A stretch of DNA of 64,000 nt, from positions 1,824,001-1,888,000 of the forward strand of contig CM000153.2 of the NCBI GenBank assembly GCA_000004695.1, read 5' to 3'. The notes beneath the pieces were generated by a model. That model had not been told where the DNA came from and made no database searches. It was given only the letters and a program-made list of their open reading frames with translations. This DNA comes from Dictyostelium discoideum (taxonomy: Eukaryota). Numbering within the stretch: position 1 is the first letter of the stretch; the number at the start of each line of letters is the position of its first letter. Below, one piece after another: positions 49,789-62,948 of the stretch. The translations under genes were made by a program, and so were the position numbers.

Positions 49789-51934
<2,146 letters not shown>

Positions 51935-52302: not shown

Positions 52303-54098
52303 ATGATAATTTTTAAAAATTTATTAAAATTATTAATAATTTTATTAACAATAAAATTATATTTTTGTATTGAAATTAAAAGAGAAGAACATTTAACAAT
52401 TTTAAATGAATTAAATGAAAATAGTGATGTGATTCAATATTCAATTTTACCAGGTAATAATGAAGAATATGAAATTGTTAAAGGTATTCAAGAAGATGCA
52501 ATAGTTTATGGATATTATATGTCAAATGTTGAAGTCAATGGTTGGGCTTATTTATCATTAGTATCAAATGATAAATACAATGATTCAACACAGTCAAGAG
52601 CATTTGGTTATTTAGAAGGTTATTTAACAAAAGATTTAATTTGGAATTCAAAAGTGAATTATTATAAAAATGCATTCAACTCTTCAGAAATTCCAAATAA
52701 ACTTGATGATTGGTTAACTGAGAATATTGAAAGTATTCACACATTCATTGTAAATAATAGAAAAAGTCGATATTGGAATCAGATTACATTGGTTATGGAC
52801 CAGATTAACGGCATGCTCGATGGGTACAATGAGGCAAACACGAATTCCAGCGAGACGTTATCATTGCATGATTTTTTTGTGTTGAATATGTTTGGCGATT
52901 TATTCGATTTAATGCCTGCTTTAAATTTGGATAAAGAGTATAAATATTTCCAAAAGGATTTAAACGATATTCAAGACTGGTTTAAAAGATCCCAACATTG
53001 TTCTGCATTGATTAAAGTGTCAAGCGACTACTCTGAATTATATTCCGGCCATACTACATGGAGTGGGTATTATACAATGTTGAGAATATTCAAGAGTTAT
53101 AACCAACAATTCTCATCAGATGTTTCAGGTACACTTTCGAAAAGAAATATTTTCAGTAGTTATCCTGGTGCTTTAATTAGTGTTGATGATTTCTATTTAT
53201 TGGGTGATACTAGAATGGTTGTAATTGAAACCACAAACTCTCTAGTCACCAATGACCTCTACCATTTAATTAGACCAACTACTGTTTTATCTTGGATGAG
53301 AGTCATAGTTTCAAATAGAATGAGTACAAATGGTAAAGAATGGTGTGAAAATTTCCAACGTTATAATTCTGGTACTTATAATAATCAATGGATGATTGTA
53401 AGTTATAATTTATTCGTCCCATATAATGAATTAAAAGATGGTGCGCTTTATGTTTTAGAACAAATTCCAGGTTATATTGAATTGTAATTATTTATTATTG
53501 TTTTTATTTTTTTTTTTTAAATTTCTTTTTAAAAATTATATATTAATTTTTTATTTTTTTTTGAAAAAGTTCTGATCAAACTCAAGCATTAAGACAAGGT
53601 TGGTGGAATTCATATAATATACCATTTTATGAAACAATTTATGATGCATCGGGTTATAATAATTATACTGCTAATAATTATAGTGATAGTACAATTTATT
53701 ATATGTCTTATCAAACTTGTCCAAGAGCTGAAATATTTAGAAATTTCGCAGGTTATGTTGAATCACTTGAAGATTTCCAATCATTATTAAGATATAATGA
53801 TTTTGAATATGATCCACTTTCACATAAACTTCCATTCTATGCCATAGCATCACGTTACGACCTTTCAAAAAAGAATCCTTCTCCATTTGGTGCAACTGAT
53901 ACAAAAGTAACTTGTAACTCTATGATTGATCAAAATACAATTGTCGCAATTAGTGGTCCAACTACATCAAATGGTCAGCCAATATTTGAATGGAATTCAA
54001 AAATTGATTTTATGGAGTCAACTTCACATTTAGGTTGCCCTGAAAAATATAATTTCCCATGGGTATCTTTCTCAGATACAACTTTTAGAAATCTTTAA
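52303..54098 (+). CDS. Phospholipase B-like (PLBD/LAMA family) secreted protein, two exons
   Basis: Signal-anchor start MIIFKNLLKLLIILLTIKLYFC. Exon 1 is 52303..53483 (…YNNQWMIVSYNLFVPYNELKDGALYVLEQIPGYIE, phase 2; donor TT|GTAATT). An 86-nt intron precedes exon 2 at 53570..54098 (F-SDQTQALRQGWWNSYNIPFYETIYDASGY…CPRAEIFRNFAGYVESLEDFQSLLRYNDFEYDPLS…GPTTSNGQPIFEWNS…). The NQWMIV, GYWNSYNIPF and CPRAEIFRR-like blocks are characteristic of PLB-like proteins. About 569 aa. Confidence 0.75.
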
Positions 54099-54837: not shown

Positions 54838-55522
54838 TTATTTATAGAAAGTACTGAGTGAATTATTGTATTTTTTGAGATGTTTAGGAAGTTCTATTGC
54901 GTGGAGAGGTGAGTTCCATTGTCTGCTAAATTGTAATAGCTTTAGCGAGATTAGTGAGTCTAATTTATTTTGTTCTTCTGGCCGTTGCTTTGATTTGATT
55001 CTTAATGTTTTGTTTATAACCGCTTGTGTCCTGTCCCATGCAGCTCTTTGTGTTTTAATTAGTTCACGTATGACTTGTTGTCTGTGAATTATTATTTCTT
55101 TTTCATCGTGAATGAGTTTATTTCTTTTGTGCCAGATTTTTTCGAATATAATAGCTATTAAATTGGCGACTAGTGCAATTTGTAGATGGTTTAAAATCTT
55201 CACATTCCAGGTGTGAGTGGTGTGTCCACACTTAGTTAGGGTGTAGTTGAAGATTTCTTGTGTGTTTTTGATGTGGGCTTTGCAGTTGAAGAATATATGT
55301 TCTGAAGTCTCATCTTCCCCACACTGTTGGCATGGCATGTTGTATTTTTTTGGTAGTGCTTTCAGTGTGTATCTCCATAATAGATCTCTACCTTTCATGT
55401 TTATTATTTTTTTGATTTCTTTAAATGGAAGGTGTTTGCTATTAATTTTGGTCATTATTTCTTTTTGGCCAGGAGTTGGTATGAATTTGTTGTGTTCAGG
55501 AGATTGAGTTGTCATCATTTTT
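54263..55522 (-). mobile_element. 5'-truncated non-LTR (TRE5-type, tRNA-gene-targeted) retroelement fragment: ORF2 C-terminal region with Cys/His zinc-knuckle, followed in the minus sense by A-tracts and short 3' modules
   Basis: Minus-strand ORF 54838..55533 (…LPKKYNMPCQQCGEDETSEHIFFNCKAHIKNTQ… = CX2C…HX4C-type motif typical of non-LTR ORF2 C-termini; also has a higher-GC, coding-like composition). Plus-strand poly-T runs at 54781-54836 and 54431-54484 are poly-A in the element sense, separating about 296-nt and about 130-nt 3' modules. The insertion is bounded by a 22-bp direct repeat (ttaaaaacaaaattttctatta at 54241-54262 and 55524-55545). The right junction lies about 44 bp upstream of tRNA-Ile, the canonical TRE5 position (about 48 bp). 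Confidence 0.55.
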
Positions 55523-55565
55523 ATTAAAAACAAAATTTTCTATTAAAAAAAAAAATCCATCGAAA

Positions 55566-55638
55566 GCTCGATTAGCTCAGTCGGCAGAGCGTGGTGCTAA
55601 TAACGCCACGGTCGCAGGTTCGATCCCTGCATCGAGCA
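55566..55638 (+). tRNA. tRNA-Ile (anticodon AAT/AAU), 73 nt, no intron
   Basis: Clean cloverleaf by hand. Acceptor stem GCTCGAT/ATCGAGC (7 bp). D-arm GCTC-AGTCGGCA-GAGC. Anticodon stem TGGTG/CGCCA with loop CTAATAA (anticodon AAT). Variable loop CGGTC. T-arm GCAGG-TTCGATC-CCTGC. Discriminator A. A-box and B-box (GGTTCGATCC) are present. Confidence 0.85.
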
Positions 55639-55992: not shown

Positions 55993-56841
55993 TAATCAAA
56001 AAAGAATGGATACCACTCAAAAGAATAAAATTAGATAATAATATAAATTATAATAATAAAATAATACCAAGATACATTTTTATTAATATTATTGAATCAA
56101 TAATTAATTATTTATGGTTAAAAAGAAAACTTGATAATAATATTATTTATAATTATGAAATAAAATATTATTATTATATTAATGAAATAATAACATTATC
56201 ATTGGTATCAAAAGATTGGTTTAAAATTATATCAAAATTACTAAATAATATAATTGATAATAATAGATTAGAATATTGGTTCAATATTTTTTGTATCATG
56301 TCCTTGTAAATTCCATTTATATTGTGTTTGTAATGATTTTCAAACTAAATATCAAGATTATATTAGAAATAATGATTATAATCACAATGATGAAAATTTA
56401 AAAAAAATTTTTAATATATTAAAAATAATTTCAAATGGTATTAAATCATTATTGTCTTCAACATCATCATTGGAATATTTCAAAATTAATACATCAATTG
56501 TACTTTGTAATGATACATTCTCTAAATTAAATGAAAATAAATCAATTAAAACCTTAGTATTTGAAAATGGGTTTAAATATAAAGGAAAAGATACAGAAAA
56601 TGAACAATTCCACAAAAATCATTATTATGGTATTATTCAATATTTAATAGAAAATGTATTCAGTGTAGCAACTTCAAATATTTTCTATAGAGAAAATTAA
56701 ATTCATATACAATCAATATTTAAATTAATTTTAAATCATATAAATACAATTCAATTATATTCAATCAAAATAAAAATAACTGAAAATATTTTAGAATCTA
56801 CATTGGATGAAATTGTTAATCTATCAGATAAATTCTCTGAA

Positions 56842-56906
<65 letters not shown>

Positions 56907-56997
56907 CTCAAATCTATCATTTAAGAATTTAGTTGAATTTAAAATCATTGTTGTCAAAGACTCTGAAATTGGTAATACTAAACAATATCAATTATAA
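55993..56997 (+). pseudogene. Fragmented F-box-like ORF string (possible pseudogene or gene with unresolved introns)
   Basis: Three consecutive stop-free stretches, each in a frame +1 of the last: the ATG at 56006 (MDTTQKNKIR*); 55993-56318 (…IPRYIFINIIESIINYLWLKRKLD…ITLSLVSKDWFKIISKLLNN… = F-box-like LP..I…I….L…..L..VSK.W..I); and 56292-56997, the last interrupted by one TAA at 56698 and ending in a (CAA)22 poly-Q. No ATG heads the F-box frame. Confidence 0.25.
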
Positions 56998-57382: not shown

Positions 57383-58817
57383 TTATTCAATTTTTTGAAT
57401 TTTTGAAGTAACAAAAATTTCTTTATCATTTAAATTAAGGAATTGTTCAATTGGTGGTAATTGAGAAAATCTTTCATCTTCTTCATCTTTATCTCTTAAT
57501 AAAATTGAAAATTCTTCTGGCAATGTTGGAATATCCCAATTATTATCTTCCATTGCCAAGGATTCTTTAGTACTTTCTAAATATTGGAAAAGATCATCAA
57601 TAGTTTCAACTGGACAAAAGACGCCCGAGGATGAATAACCGTCATAGACTGTTTCGAAGCATTGTGTCATGTAACGATCGAAATTTTCTTTTTTCCATTG
57701 TGGACCATATGGTAGTGATCTATCTTTTGTTGATTGATTTAGAATTGTTTCAATCTCTTTATTATACTTAGCGGCCAATAGTAATTGGAAACCAGACATA
57801 TACTCACTCATTGTAGATTTATCTTCTGTATTGAAATGGTTGACTATATCTTGAATAGCTGGAGTATTATGATAATGAATATCATAACCTCTTGATAGAT
57901 ATTTCAAAAGACGACGTTGATATTGATTACCACCTCTGATTCTATATGAAAATTGTGAAGCGATATTAATACGATGATTGACAGCCAATAAACCACGTTC
58001 CAAAGTCCAAACATCGGTACCATCGAATGCAAAACAACTACAATCGATATCGACACCCAATAGTACTTCATTGATGTCTTTGAATTGATAAATATTGAAT
58101 TGAACAGTTCTATTTGGATGTTGTAATGAGAAAACTACATGACCACCCATTGCATGAATTGAATAACCTTTATCTTCATAATCCTCACCGAAAATATTTT
58201 CAACCTTACTAATATAGGCGGATTCGAAACTTTCATTTGAATCGCCTAACATTAAAACGTCGATATCAGAGCTTTCAAATCCTTGTGCTTGACCAGTTAA
58301 ACACGATGTAATTAAACCTCCAATAAATAAGAAACCCTTTGGTGTATTACCATGTTCATCTTTAAATAATCCTCTAGTTTCTCTATGAAAATTTGCCAAA
58401 AACTCCTCTTTTGGAACTATAGATGGTGATCCATCAACTAAATCCTTTGATTTCACTTCAGATTTAAATAAACGATGTCTAATCTCTGATTCACTTGATA
58501 ACTCTTTAAATTTGAATAATTCATAATTATCATAAACATTGATCTTACTATCATTACCACTAATGTAAACATCATCTTCAACTTGCATTTCATAATTATT
58601 TCTTAACCAAGTATCTTTTTTTAAAGCTGATCCAATTAATACATTTAATGTAAATAATTTCTCTTTTTCATCTTTTGATATCTCCTTATCATTATACAAT
58701 GCCCAAATTATAAGATATCCAATTGGTCTATCCTCTAATAAACAATATTCAATAAATTGTTCTTTTAAATCAAATGGTAATGATTTAATTTTTTTTAATG
58801 TATTTTCTTTATCACTA

Positions 58818-58858
<41 letters not shown>

Positions 58859-59622
58859 TTTATAAATAAATAAATAAATATTTTAATTTTAAAAAAACAT
58901 ACATTGAAAATAATTGTTTTAAAGTTGAAAAACAAATTTTCTTATAGGATGGTATAAATGGTGAACCTTTTGGACCATCAAATGATGAATAACTACCAAT
59001 TTTAAATTTAACCTTATCATAATTTGTAATATCAGAACATGGCATTAATTTTGAAATAAAACTATTTTCTACAGATTGATTATCATTTTTTGAAACTCTA
59101 ATAAATTTTCTATGACAATATGAATTAGATCTTGATAATTTAATTTTTGAATATTTATAAGATTGTGCATAGCTTCTAGCAGAGTAAACTAATGAATCAA
59201 TATAAATTGAACCATCTTCATCAATTTTAATTAAATCATATTTTTTTTTATCAAAACTTGACATAATGTTTGAACTAAATAATTCTTTATATCCCTCTGG
59301 CTTATAAATATATAAAAAATATATAAATTAATAAAAATTAATAAAAATAAATAAAAATAATAATAAAATTACATACATTAAAATAAACACAATTAGTTAA
59401 TGATTTATATAGTTCACCAGATTTATCATGTTGTGATTTTTCAATTTGAAAACTAATTGGATCTCTGTCTCTATGTCTTATTTTTTCTTTTAATTTTGTA
59501 AGAATTGGTGGTTGTTGAGAATCTTGAAGTGGAAATGTAATTAGTAAATCACCTTCAAAACATTGATTATGGTCAATTATTTTAGGTGGTTCTTGTTTTT
59601 CTTCAAGTTTTGTTCTTGCCAT
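57383..59622 (-). CDS. Hypothetical ~691-aa protein carrying a Pol-beta-superfamily nucleotidyltransferase motif (hGG-x14-SDIDV … VDID); three exons
   Basis: Exon 1 is 59377..59622 (MARTKLEEKQEPPKIIDHNQCFEGDLLITFP…NCVYFN; donor GTATGT). A 76-nt intron precedes exon 2 at 58903..59300 (PEGYKELFSSNIMSSFDKKKYDLIKIDEDGSIYIDSLVYSARSYAQ…TLKQLFS, phase 2; donor GTATGT). An 88-nt intron precedes exon 3 at 57383..58814 (I-DKENTLKKIKSLPFDLKEQFIEYCLLEDRPIGYLIIWALYNDKEI… …PKGFLFIGGLITSCLTGQAQGFESSDIDVLMLGDS… …VLLGVDIDCSCFAFDGTDVW… …KIE*). The GG…[DE]h[DE]h plus downstream acidic triad is the minimal NTase signature (PAP/Cid1, OAS, Mab21/cGAS classes). The ORF-track 'M' at 58699 is a TTG. Confidence 0.6.
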
Positions 59623-60052: not shown

Positions 60053-61252
60053 TTAATTTGACAAAGACATTACCATAGATTTAACAACACCCATTTGAAC
60101 ACCTAATTGAGAAGCATAATCAGCTCCAGTAAATGACCACCAATCAAAACAACCTTTTGGATTTAATTCAGTTTCCAATGCTTGTGGATATAATATTATA
60201 ATATTATTTGTCTCAGCGATTTCATTGTAACCTGTTTTTGTATAAAAATTATCACCAATTGTTGCAACAGTTTGTAAACAACCATGAAAAGCAACATGAA
60301 TTGAACATACTTTATTTTTAAAAAAAAAAAAATTAATTACTTAAATAAATATTAAAATAAATAAAGAATAAAAATAAATTAATAAATAATAAAAAACTTA
60401 CAAGATTTATCATTTTTACAAGAAGTTGGAATATATGCATATGCAAAATTATTTAAACCAGCTGTGATTGTTGTATATCCAATTGGTATGAATGATGATT
60501 GATCAATTGTAATAATCTAAAAAAATATTAAGTTAGTAAAATTAAATTAAAGAAAATAATAAATAATAAATAAATAATAATAATAATAATAATAATCTTA
60601 CATTTTCAGTTAAATTATTTAAAGATGGTTGATTTAATTCACCATAAAATTGTGATAAAAAGTCCCATGGTGCATTGAAATTACAATTATTTATATAATC
60701 AGGACCTAAGTACGTACAATTATTACCAAATGAGTTTGTGATGAAAGCATGTTCTGATTGAATATCGAACATGGTTTTAATGTTATCATTATTGACATAG
60801 TTTGAATAGTATTCAACCAATTTTCTCATTACACCCGGTACAACAACTGTATCATTCATACCAGAGTATAACCAAACTTGACTATTCTTTAAATTGGATG
60901 GATCGTCAATTGTTAATGAAGTTGCTGCAAATTCAGTTGCACCAATTAATTCTGTGATGCTAATTAGTTCTGGTGCTTTCATACAATCCAATTGTGCTGT
61001 GATTACACTAGATTTTGCACACCAGTATGGTCCACCCGCTAAAATTGCCGCACCTCTTACCATTGATGAGAATGCAACATGGAATTGTACTGCCATATAA
61101 CCACCACTGCTAATACCTGATACTGTAATTTGGTCACTCGACTTTACATTATTTTTAAAAACTTTTATACATAATATTGGTGATATAAATATTAAATTTA
61201 AAATTAAAATTATTGATAATAAAATATAATTATATTTATTATTATTATTCAT
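60053..61252 (-). CDS. Secreted alpha/beta-hydrolase of the PHB-depolymerase / Esterase_PHB (CE1-like) family; three exons
   Basis: Signal peptide MNNNNKYNYILLSIILILNLIFISPILC. Nucleophile elbow GISSGG (GxSxG). Exons are 60602..61252 (donor GTAAGA), 60412..60526 (…TSCKNDKS, phase 1; donor GTAAGT) and 60053..60309 (LCSIHVAFHGCLQTVATIGDNFYTKTGYNEIAETNNIIILYPQAL…KGCFDWWSF…*). The HGC.Q and CWDWW-type blocks match the PHB-depolymerase esterase family. About 340 aa. Confidence 0.7.
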
Positions 61253-61440: not shown

Positions 61441-62948
61441 TTATTGTAATTCTTTTAATTCATGAAATTGAAAAATGAGGGATTCAACAAATTTATTTAT
61501 TGTTTGAATTATTTCCGGAGGTTGATTTTCTGGATTTTTACATTCTAATTCCATTTCATGATATTCACGGTGCAGAGAATATGAATTTAGTATTAAATCA
61601 AACAAACCACCTAATATAAATAATTTAGTATACGAGTGGGAAGAGCTACCTCTAATTGTAGCATAGTAACGTTTGTCTGTGATGTCTACAAGGTTGTACC
61701 AGAAAATATATTGATCATGAATCATTTGGGAACGATTCTGATGAGTACCAATAACTTTTATTTTTAAATCTTGTAGTTCCTTCTTGGAATAATTTTTGTT
61801 TTTATCATATATCCCACCATCTTGAGTGCTATCCAATGGTTCTAATATTTTTTTAATTTTGTCGTTTTTGTTAAGATTGTTGTTTTCTTTTTTGTATTTA
61901 TCATTATATATTTGAGCTATGTGTTCAGCTGATAATTTCTTCAACATTTGTTCGTTCCAAAAAGGACCACATGGTGGTTTTACAAAGTTAGTTTTATATT
62001 TGCCATTTAATATTTCCAATGTTGTCCCATGCAGTGTCTCACCAACAAAAATTAGTTCTAATTCTTTTTTTGAAAAACGAAATAAATTTCCAATAGTTGC
62101 AAATTGTTCTATATTTAGATTATTATTAATTTCCACATATGGGTTTGAATATCTTGAATATAGATTTGTTGCAATGCAATTGATATGACCAGCGGTATTT
62201 TTGGTATACTCGTACAATAGTCCTGTGCTTTCATCATAAAAAAGGAATGTTTTATGTATGGTTAATAAAGGTTTGACGAATATTTTAATTTCTTGAGGAA
62301 CAGTCACGCCACTCTTCCTTGTTGAGGATAAAATACGACATTTCAATTCATCTAAACATTCTTTATTATTTACTAATGCAAAGGCACTATCGCAACATAC
62401 GATTAAGTTATTCCTTGGATCCTCCCAATTATATTTTGAATGTAAATTATCCAAAAGGGTTTTTAATGAATTGAAAGGAGATTGACAGTTTTCTGGTGTT
62501 CTTGGACCATAACTAATTACATATGGACAATTACTAATATTCAATTTGGTTGTTAGACTATATGCTTCAATTCCGACTGAATGGGGTTTGCTATCATTAT
62601 TAATCAATATATGATCTTTAATAGCATCTTTCCCATAATATGCGTATATTGTTTCATCACAATTGAGAACGTTACCAATATTAATATATTTCAATGCACT
62701 GTTCATAAATATTTCACAATATTCTTCAAATCTATGACTTTTCATATCCAAAACATTATGTACTGCTGAATATCTATTGTGATCCATCATTTTTAAATTA
62801 ATTAATTCAGGTGGTATCTTATCATTGTTTTTATTTGAATAAATATTTTTTAAATAATCAGTTATAAATTTCCAGAATGTAATATCGGTTAAATCATTTA
62901 ATCTTGAAATATCCTTCCCTTTATCTAATTTTTTTCTCCCTCTCATGT
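61441..62948 (-). CDS. piggyBac-transposase-like (DDE_Tnp_1_7 family, PGBD-like) protein; main exon, with probable short 5' exons at ~63035-63167 and 63291-63382
   Basis: Main exon ORF 61441..62946 shows, by eye, piggyBac-type blocks: N-terminal …FWKFITDYL…; first acidic block LNCDETIYAYYGKDAIKDHILINNDSKPHSVGIEAY (DE…KGR..….KP.K.G.K pattern); second block LIVCCDSAFAL (D..F.S); and YDESTG… No C-terminal Cys-rich domain. The ATG at 62946 has a poor context (gacATG). Upstream, a well-contexted ATG at 63382 (aaaATGACAAAAAAA; MTKKSEKINKESNISKTIITNAQIDQKMRNE) is followed by a GTATGT donor, and an acceptor at 63168 opens an in-frame 44-codon segment (EAEKLFWIFNNKVRPINYSEIVENTTPRKSSINREKIESENNG). Joining to the main exon at AG|AC-ATG needs a weak GTCAGG donor (phase 1), so the 5' structure is tentative. 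Confidence 0.6.

Follow-up and report, generated by a model that had tools for sequence, protein, structure and literature searches.

A PF26128-family protein of Dictyostelium discoideum with a nucleotidyltransferase core and diverged class II-like motifs

Pandoraviruses encode a group of BTB-nucleotidyltransferases, termed cluster 7, in which HHpred detected similarity to the poly(A) polymerase head domain (95%) and in which motif A is intact (bioRxiv 10.1101/2023.12.02.569716). The third carboxylate is missing from these proteins and a conserved Gln (Q508) is found at its site, DFD stands in the place of RRD, the EDxxR motif is absent, and two conserved basic residues are located downstream (bioRxiv 10.1101/2023.12.02.569716). 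According to the same preprint, which cites Hou et al. 2005, class II CCA enzymes need just the two carboxylates of motif A (bioRxiv 10.1101/2023.12.02.569716). By the definition of the nucleotidyltransferase (NTase) fold superfamily, the structurally adjacent third strand carries a third carboxylate (h[DE]h), and FAM46 has three canonical carboxylates (PMC4857005). Here we describe DDB_G0284357, a minus-strand gene located within a 64,000-nucleotide stretch of the Dictyostelium discoideum genome (contig CM000153.2, positions 1,824,001 to 1,888,000; hereafter the window). Comparison with the description given in the preprint revealed that its product has the same motif pattern as the Pandoravirus proteins, i.e. 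motif A, the Gln, D-h-D for RRD, no EDxxR and the downstream basic residues. It differs from these and other relatives of the Pfam family PF26128 in having no BTB, ankyrin or F-box domain and in having a basic N-terminal alpha/beta domain of its own.

The explanation that we favour, tentatively, is that DDB_G0284357 encodes a probably active NTase of the PF26128 family, whose head and neck would be a strongly diverged offshoot of class II (CCA-adding or bacterial poly(A) polymerase-type) enzymes and which would add nucleotides to nucleic-acid 3′ ends. Part of this is already known: the gene is annotated as hypothetical, the family is present in Pfam, and the class II-like nature and unusual motifs of viral members have been described in the preprint.

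The gene and its orthologues

The gene spans window positions 57383-59622, with an ATG at 59622 and a stop codon at 57383-57385. Its joined coding sequence of 2076 nt (stop codon counted within exon 3) specifies a protein of 691 aa, identical at every residue to XP_638580.1 (DDB_G0284357, UniProt Q54PS4) of D. discoideum AX4. A spliced product of this length, with two introns starting with GTATGT, had been predicted in a first-pass annotation of the window made from the sequence alone. Both introns begin with GTATGT, end with TAG and contain approximately 3.5% G+C, which is typical for Dictyostelium introns; the G+C content is 21% for the window and 28% for the coding sequence. Orthologues in six other dictyostelid species are colinear with DDB_G0284357 (92-41% identity), and colinearity across both splice junctions was found in D. 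discoideum isolates, D. citrinum, D. dimigraforme, D. firmibasis, D. purpureum, Acytostelium and Heterostelium. The gene, which is single-copy within the window, is therefore real and encodes an uncharacterised Dictyostelium protein. The AX4 annotation reads hypothetical protein and nothing more, and the identifiers DDB_G0284357, Q54PS4 and XP_638580 occur in no searchable paper, in agreement with the description of the gene as uncharacterised in the first-pass annotation.

Two short, scrambled paralogues were observed in sister species, P0013 of D. citrinum (281 aa) and P0016 of D. dimigraforme (249 aa). They show 47-53% identity, lack parts of the core and probably arose by duplication of the gene followed by decay. 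An orthologue-like protein of 1143 aa from a eukprot dictyostelid (P0011) carries a complete FMN-dependent dehydrogenase domain (PF01070, 7e-134) at its C-terminus; this joining may be genuine or an artefact of the gene model.

Fold, active-site motifs and relation to class II enzymes

Structural modelling and fold searches were carried out with the translation of exon 3 and with P0001, an orthologue of 92% identity. In the AlphaFold2 (AF2) model (secondary structure in exon-3 numbering), FIGG ends strand 161-164 and opens helix 166-173, and D398-I-D400 lies on strand 184-189. Since the GG is located at a strand-to-helix junction and the DxD on the next strand, their placement is canonical for NTases. 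Structure comparison recovered the alpha-beta-alpha-beta-alpha-beta core of the Pol-beta-like NTase fold. Behind the head, C-terminal to the core, the model contains a helical domain, for which a check had been proposed beforehand. In a Foldseek search against the PDB, class II enzymes that add CCA, CC or A occupied seven of the ten first rows (probability 0.98-1.0, E from 8e-4), followed by weaker matches to TENT5, CdnC, GLD-2, TUT7, DncV and OAS2. Overall, the closest structures were TENT5 and class II CCA/poly(A) enzymes, and the family has more in common with RNA-tailing enzymes than with cGAS/OAS signalling enzymes. These matches and the motif placement bear out the NTase-fold core proposed in the first-pass annotation, for which a lack of NTase-fold matches had been named as a refutation and did not occur: the core of the DDB_G0284357 protein is a genuine nucleotide-transferring enzyme fold.

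The N-terminal 215 residues, encoded by exons 1 and 2, are basic, with an isoelectric point (pI) of 9.2. In the AF2 model of P0001 (predicted local distance difference test score, pLDDT, 85) this region folds into a hairpin, three helices and a sheet of four strands accompanied by a helix, and a helical domain (residues 200-289) separates it from the NTase head. Only about 20 family representatives match the part of the profile that covers the N-terminal alpha/beta region, which is thus restricted to few, full-length homologues.

Conservation was assessed in an alignment of 105 homologues sharing about 20-35% identity with the query. Motif A is nearly invariant (G380, 100%; G381, G/S in 99%; D398, 98%; D400, 96%), as are four residues downstream (R450, 94%; Q453, 95%; D470, 98%; D472, D/E in 95%). 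The positions D479/G480, R488, R508, Y513, R516, K519, Y520, R523 and G524 are also near-invariant. All of these residues are present in the DDB_G0284357 protein, and their retention throughout so diverse a family is the hallmark of an active site that has been maintained. Judged from this alignment, the GG/DID/VDID pattern is far beyond chance, which speaks against the possibility, raised at first, that GG…DID is fortuitous. FIGG, SDIDV and VDID were all found in exon 3, as described previously; their spacing had been miscounted, as 15 residues (not 14) separate GG from S397, and D400 and D470 are 70 (not about 55) residues apart.

The hG[GS] and [DE]h[DE]h elements of the superfamily were identified by model placement, conservation and alignment to class II motif A. 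An acidic h[DE]h on the adjacent third strand was not found: the three strands separating DxD from D470 contain no site at which D or E exceeds 30% across the family, and R450 and Q453 are conserved there instead. Thus, of the catalytic triad initially proposed, GG and DxD stand (96-100% conserved), while VDID is not the canonical third carboxylate and aligns with class II motif B. By this alignment VDID is a real, conserved, active-site-proximal motif that corresponds to motif B. Q453 probably occupies the canonical third-carboxylate position, an assignment based on topology and on the analogy to Pandoravirus Q508 (bioRxiv 10.1101/2023.12.02.569716), not on residue alignment or superposition.

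The family core was compared by hhalign with a small set of class II sequences taken from PDB alignments (CCA- and A-adding enzymes of B. stearothermophilus, A. aeolicus, Planococcus and enterobacteria). The alignment was colinear over 147-158 columns, with P = 1e-3 to 3e-3, versus P = 0.13-0.18 for a reversed-sequence control. GG/DxD was placed opposite motif A, G-V-D470-I-D472-C-S-C-F-A-F-D-G opposite R-R-D-F-T-M-N-A-I-A (motif B and its strand), and YQRRLLKYLSRGY opposite EDALRMMRAVRFVSELGF, i.e. the first neck helix with the EDxxR motif. Within the latter, YQRRLLKY faces EDALRMMR, and of RRD only the D is kept. With the single E. coli CCA sequence, motif A alone was aligned (probability 1.9%). 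The third carboxylate of class II enzymes, which we take to be E79 of the B. stearothermophilus enzyme (this agrees with the sequence numbering of the alignment), has no acidic partner in the PF26128 core.

Accordingly, the DDB_G0284357 protein resembles class II tRNA nucleotidyltransferases and bacterial poly(A) polymerase I (PolyA_pol, PF01743; 1MIV, 3H37, 3WFO, 3AQL) in head fold and in the order of secondary-structure elements; both have a motif A of the form GG-x(13-16)-DxD, an acidic residue where RRD has its D, and a basic helix opening the neck. It differs from them in having DID for RRD, YQRRL for EDxxR and no acidic third carboxylate, in an extra strand, in the absence of the flexible loop, and in that tRNA-binding body and tail domains are not recognisable. 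Identity is only about 13%. With no PF01743 profile match, and with neither RRD (motif B) nor EDxxR (motif D; motif C of the preprint) found, it is not a bona fide class II CCA-adding enzyme or poly(A) polymerase.

Searches with other profiles gave no assignment. A local Pfam copy that did not include the PF26128 model yielded no matches at E ≤ 10 for the query and none at E ≤ 1 for its homologues; among the families absent were Mab-21 (PF03281), SMODS (PF18144), OAS1_C and PAP_assoc (PF03828), three of which had been suggested for a scan in the first-pass annotation. NCBIfam gave no matches for the protein, and neither did PADLOC, its CD-NTase models included. PDB sequences searched with phmmer or the family profile yielded nothing significant (two xylanase matches at E of about 0.8). 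TENT5/FAM46 non-canonical poly(A) polymerases (6JYJ, 8EQB) share 9% identity with the protein, and true FAM46 genes exist separately in dictyostelids; membership in FAM46 was rejected, as no family profile match and no set of three canonical carboxylates were found. The cGAS/OAS/CD-NTase group (Mab-21, SMODS) has the generic Pol-beta core, hG[GS] and DxD, in common with DDB_G0284357, but the third carboxylate is handled differently. Membership in this group was likewise rejected in view of the missing profile match and the closer structural neighbourhood of class II enzymes.

The PF26128 family and its possible activity

A precomputed PF26128.2 match is available for P0006, a Logan open reading frame (ORF) 100% identical to the window ORF 57383-58699, and for all orthologues. 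An exhaustive profile search, with clusters counted at 50% identity, retrieved at least 5,644 cluster representatives at E ≤ 1e-3 and 585 at E ≤ 1e-30. The family is distributed among Amoebozoa, fungi, green algae, Euglenozoa, Metamonada and giant viruses, so DDB_G0284357, thought at first to be possibly lineage-specific, belongs to a large family of eukaryotes and giant viruses that is already in Pfam. Members were found in Dictyostelia, Protostelium, Soliformovum, Flabellula, Anaeramoeba, Diplonema, the alga Bryopsis, and ascomycete and basidiomycete fungi; named ones are labelled only ‘hypothetical protein’ or ‘ankyrin repeat protein’. The AF2 model gave 66 Foldseek matches to giant-virus proteins, including a Fadolivirus ankyrin protein (E 1.6e-17) and Pandoravirus BTB proteins (E 1e-8 to 1e-9). 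Others belong to Bodo saltans virus, Pithovirus, Hokovirus, Megavirus and mimivirus and carry ankyrin, BTB, VWFA, F-box or RING-like domains. A scan of IMG/VR with family patterns yielded no relatives confirmed by tblastn.

Many family members are fusion proteins. Ankyrin repeats are present in 21 of the 41 long members. PARP catalytic domains were identified in at least seven representatives, in architectures that include BRCT-WGR-PARP_reg-PARP-NTase-Ank and WGR-PARP-NTase-Ank (BRCT-WGR-PARP-NTase-Ank in P0156 and P0166). Two proteins are fused to polynucleotide kinase/phosphatase (PNKP) modules, as PNK3P-NTase-kinase (P0084) and WGR-PARP-NTase-PNK3P-kinase (P0085), and single cases with PBZ, ubiquitin, TPR or WD40 were also found. 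None of these partners (PARP, PNKP, ankyrin, PBZ, ubiquitin, TPR, WD40) occurs in the DDB_G0284357 protein, where the part kept across the family is the NTase head with the first neck helix. The literature on the family consists, as far as could be found, of the single predictive 2023 preprint; the term ‘PF26128’ itself was not found in any paper, and a 2009 classification of NTase-fold proteins makes no mention of ankyrin, PARP, mimivirus or Dictyostelium contexts.

We propose the following scheme for catalytic competence, residue roles and acceptor. G380-G381 and the motif A carboxylates D398/D400 would bind the triphosphate of a nucleoside triphosphate and Mg2+, with Gln453 in place of the usual third carboxylate. 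The D470-x-D472 pair, at the position of RRD, may touch the ribose or a metal, and the basic helix (R508, R515/R516, K519, R523) would line the nucleotide/acceptor pocket. A nucleoside monophosphate (NMP) would be transferred without a template to a polynucleotide 3′-OH, most likely that of RNA (tailing or end repair), and the lineage-specific basic N-terminal domain together with the helical domains may target the substrate.

Addition to 3′ ends is suggested by three lines of evidence. Firstly, both the closest structures and the only sequence relatives that align colinearly are enzymes of RNA 3′ ends. Secondly, the proposed active-site residues are strongly constrained (94-100% conserved). 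Thirdly, relatives carry, in the same polypeptide, modules for end healing (PNKP) and for break sensing (WGR-PARP). Bacterial CCA enzymes are annotated as fused to a phosphohydrolase, a heal-and-extend logic that is echoed by the PNKP and PARP fusions of PF26128. The RNA-tailing half of the function initially proposed for the gene therefore stays the best hypothesis.

Several points weigh against this explanation. The hhalign probability values are low (8-12%), so that the class II alignment is supporting evidence and not proof. The RRD ribose motif and the EDxxR base-selection motif are missing, for which reason the specificity for the donor (and the acceptor) is not predictable. Where Q453 and D470/D472 would lie with respect to the metals is predicted from sequence and topology. 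Unlike many tailing enzymes that bind RNA, the protein has an NTase core and C-terminal parts of acidic character (pI 4.4-5.4). The commonest partner domains (ankyrin, BTB, F-box, VWFA, TPR, WD40) are protein-binding modules that fit a protein substrate equally well, and no biochemical or genetic data for any PF26128 member were found in the literature.

The abundance of such partners keeps alive an alternative that we regard as rather unlikely, namely that the protein is a protein- or small-molecule nucleotidylyltransferase (AMPylase, GlnE/antibiotic-NTase type), which would transfer NMP to a hydroxyl, with repeat or adaptor domains recruiting the protein target. The ankyrin repeats of the long members, the BTB, F-box, VWFA and RING-like domains of the giant-virus relatives, the TPR, WD40 and ubiquitin fusions, and the loss of the RNA-specific motifs RRD and EDxxR would all suit such an activity. 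Against it, the only colinear alignment and the top structural matches are those to RNA 3′-end enzymes, and the PNKP and WGR-PARP fusions point to nucleic-acid ends.

Two further explanations are less likely still. Synthesis of a nucleotide second messenger by a cGAS/OAS/CD-NTase-like enzyme, the reading preferred in the first-pass annotation, is consistent with the intact NTase core and with a weak Foldseek likeness to CdnC, CdnE, DncV and OAS2 (E 0.007-0.3). Ankyrin repeats can act as 2-5A receptors in RNase L, which adds to its appeal. We nevertheless consider it improbable: no Mab-21, SMODS, OAS1_C, PAP_assoc or PADLOC CD-NTase match was obtained, the canonical third carboxylate of such enzymes is not conserved, and the neck helix finds its counterpart in class II enzymes. 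Equally improbable is a pseudoenzyme, in which the NTase fold would serve, without catalysis, as a scaffold or ligand sensor. The loss of the third carboxylate, of RRD (motif B) and of EDxxR (motif D) might point to it, as might the strands that separate DxD from D470, on which no acidic residue is conserved. Against it, GG, DxD, Q453, D470 and D472 are near-invariant in a very diverse family, which is an active-site pattern and not degeneration, and class II CCA enzymes reportedly manage with the two motif A carboxylates (preprint citing Hou et al. 2005).

A broader and more speculative proposal, to which we assign a low likelihood, is that PF26128 constitutes a functionally new class of eukaryotic and giant-virus NTases with a two-carboxylate-plus-Gln site, acting in PARP-linked damage or conflict signalling and targeted by their ankyrin, BTB and F-box partners. 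If so, the chemistry might comprise, for example, extension or capping of broken nucleic-acid ends or of ADP-ribose/poly(ADP-ribose) termini, and DDB_G0284357 would offer a genetically tractable entry point to it. An enzyme that extends damaged nucleic-acid ends or modifies ADP-ribose would represent a new activity for eukaryotic repair and conflict pathways and would help to explain a recurrent giant-virus gene family. D. discoideum, with one clean copy that has a single-domain core, lends itself well to tests of this proposal.

Feature coordinates and neighbouring genes

The positions of the exons, introns and motifs of DDB_G0284357 are summarized in Table 1.

Table 1. Exons, introns and motifs of DDB_G0284357, in window coordinates
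Feature	Position	Strand	Description
Exon 1	59377..59622	-	Residues 1-82
Intron 1	59301..59376	-	76 nt, starts GTATGT, 3.9% G+C
Exon 2	58903..59300	-	Residues 83-214 and two bases of codon 215
Intron 2	58815..58902	-	88 nt, GTATGT…ATAG, 3.4% G+C
Exon 3	57383..58814	-	Residues 215-691: helical domain, NTase head, neck/helical C-terminal domain, acidic tail
NTase head and first neck helix	57869..58441	-	Residues about 340-530; PF26128 core kept across the family
G380-G381	58316..58321	-	hGG of motif A, beta1/alphaA junction; part of FIGG 378-381
S397-D398-I399-D400-V401	58256..58270	-	Two predicted metal-binding carboxylates of motif A, strand beta2
Q453 (with R450)	58100..58102	-	Near-invariant Gln, last strand before helix alphaC; from conservation and Pandoravirus analogy
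V469-D470-I471-D472	58043..58054	-	Conserved acidic pair; aligns with class II motif B (RRD)
Y513-Q-R-R-L-L-K-Y-L-S-R-G-Y525	57884..57922	-	Conserved basic helix; aligns with class II neck helix EDxxR…LRxxRF, without the ED pair

The neighbouring gene at 60542-61252 (-) is annotated in AX4 as a polyhydroxybutyrate depolymerase (XP_638581.1) and probably extends to about 60053; it gave a weak alpha/beta-hydrolase match alone (Peptidase_S9, E 0.007). A D. cf. discoideum annotation of 1026 aa (P0181) appears, judged by its length, to fuse this hydrolase gene with the NTase gene, which would account for the presence of the two unrelated proteins in one 90% cluster. Further along, at 61441-62946 (-), a 501-aa ORF called piggyBac-like in the first-pass annotation gave no Pfam match at E ≤ 0.01, the piggyBac transposase family included, and that label is unconfirmed.

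On the other side of the gene, a tRNA-Ile(AAT) gene at 55566-55638 (+) lies 33 bp from a 231-aa ORF at 54838-55533 (-), which contains a Cys/His knuckle (CQQCGEDETSEHIFFNC) and has no Pfam match. This ORF looks like a fragment of a tRNA-gene-targeted non-LTR (long terminal repeat) retroelement (TRE-type) that integrated next to the tRNA gene. At 52303-54098 (+) lies a phospholipase B-like gene of two exons, with Pfam Phospholip_B matches of 3e-104 and 4e-34 on its two ORFs. A CAA/TTG run at 56751-56997 would be read as poly-Q, poly-N or poly-C depending on the frame, and a 410-aa ORF at 50702-51934 (+) contains poly-Asn runs of about 70 and 40 residues; these homopolymeric codon tracts are typical Dictyostelium simple repeats.

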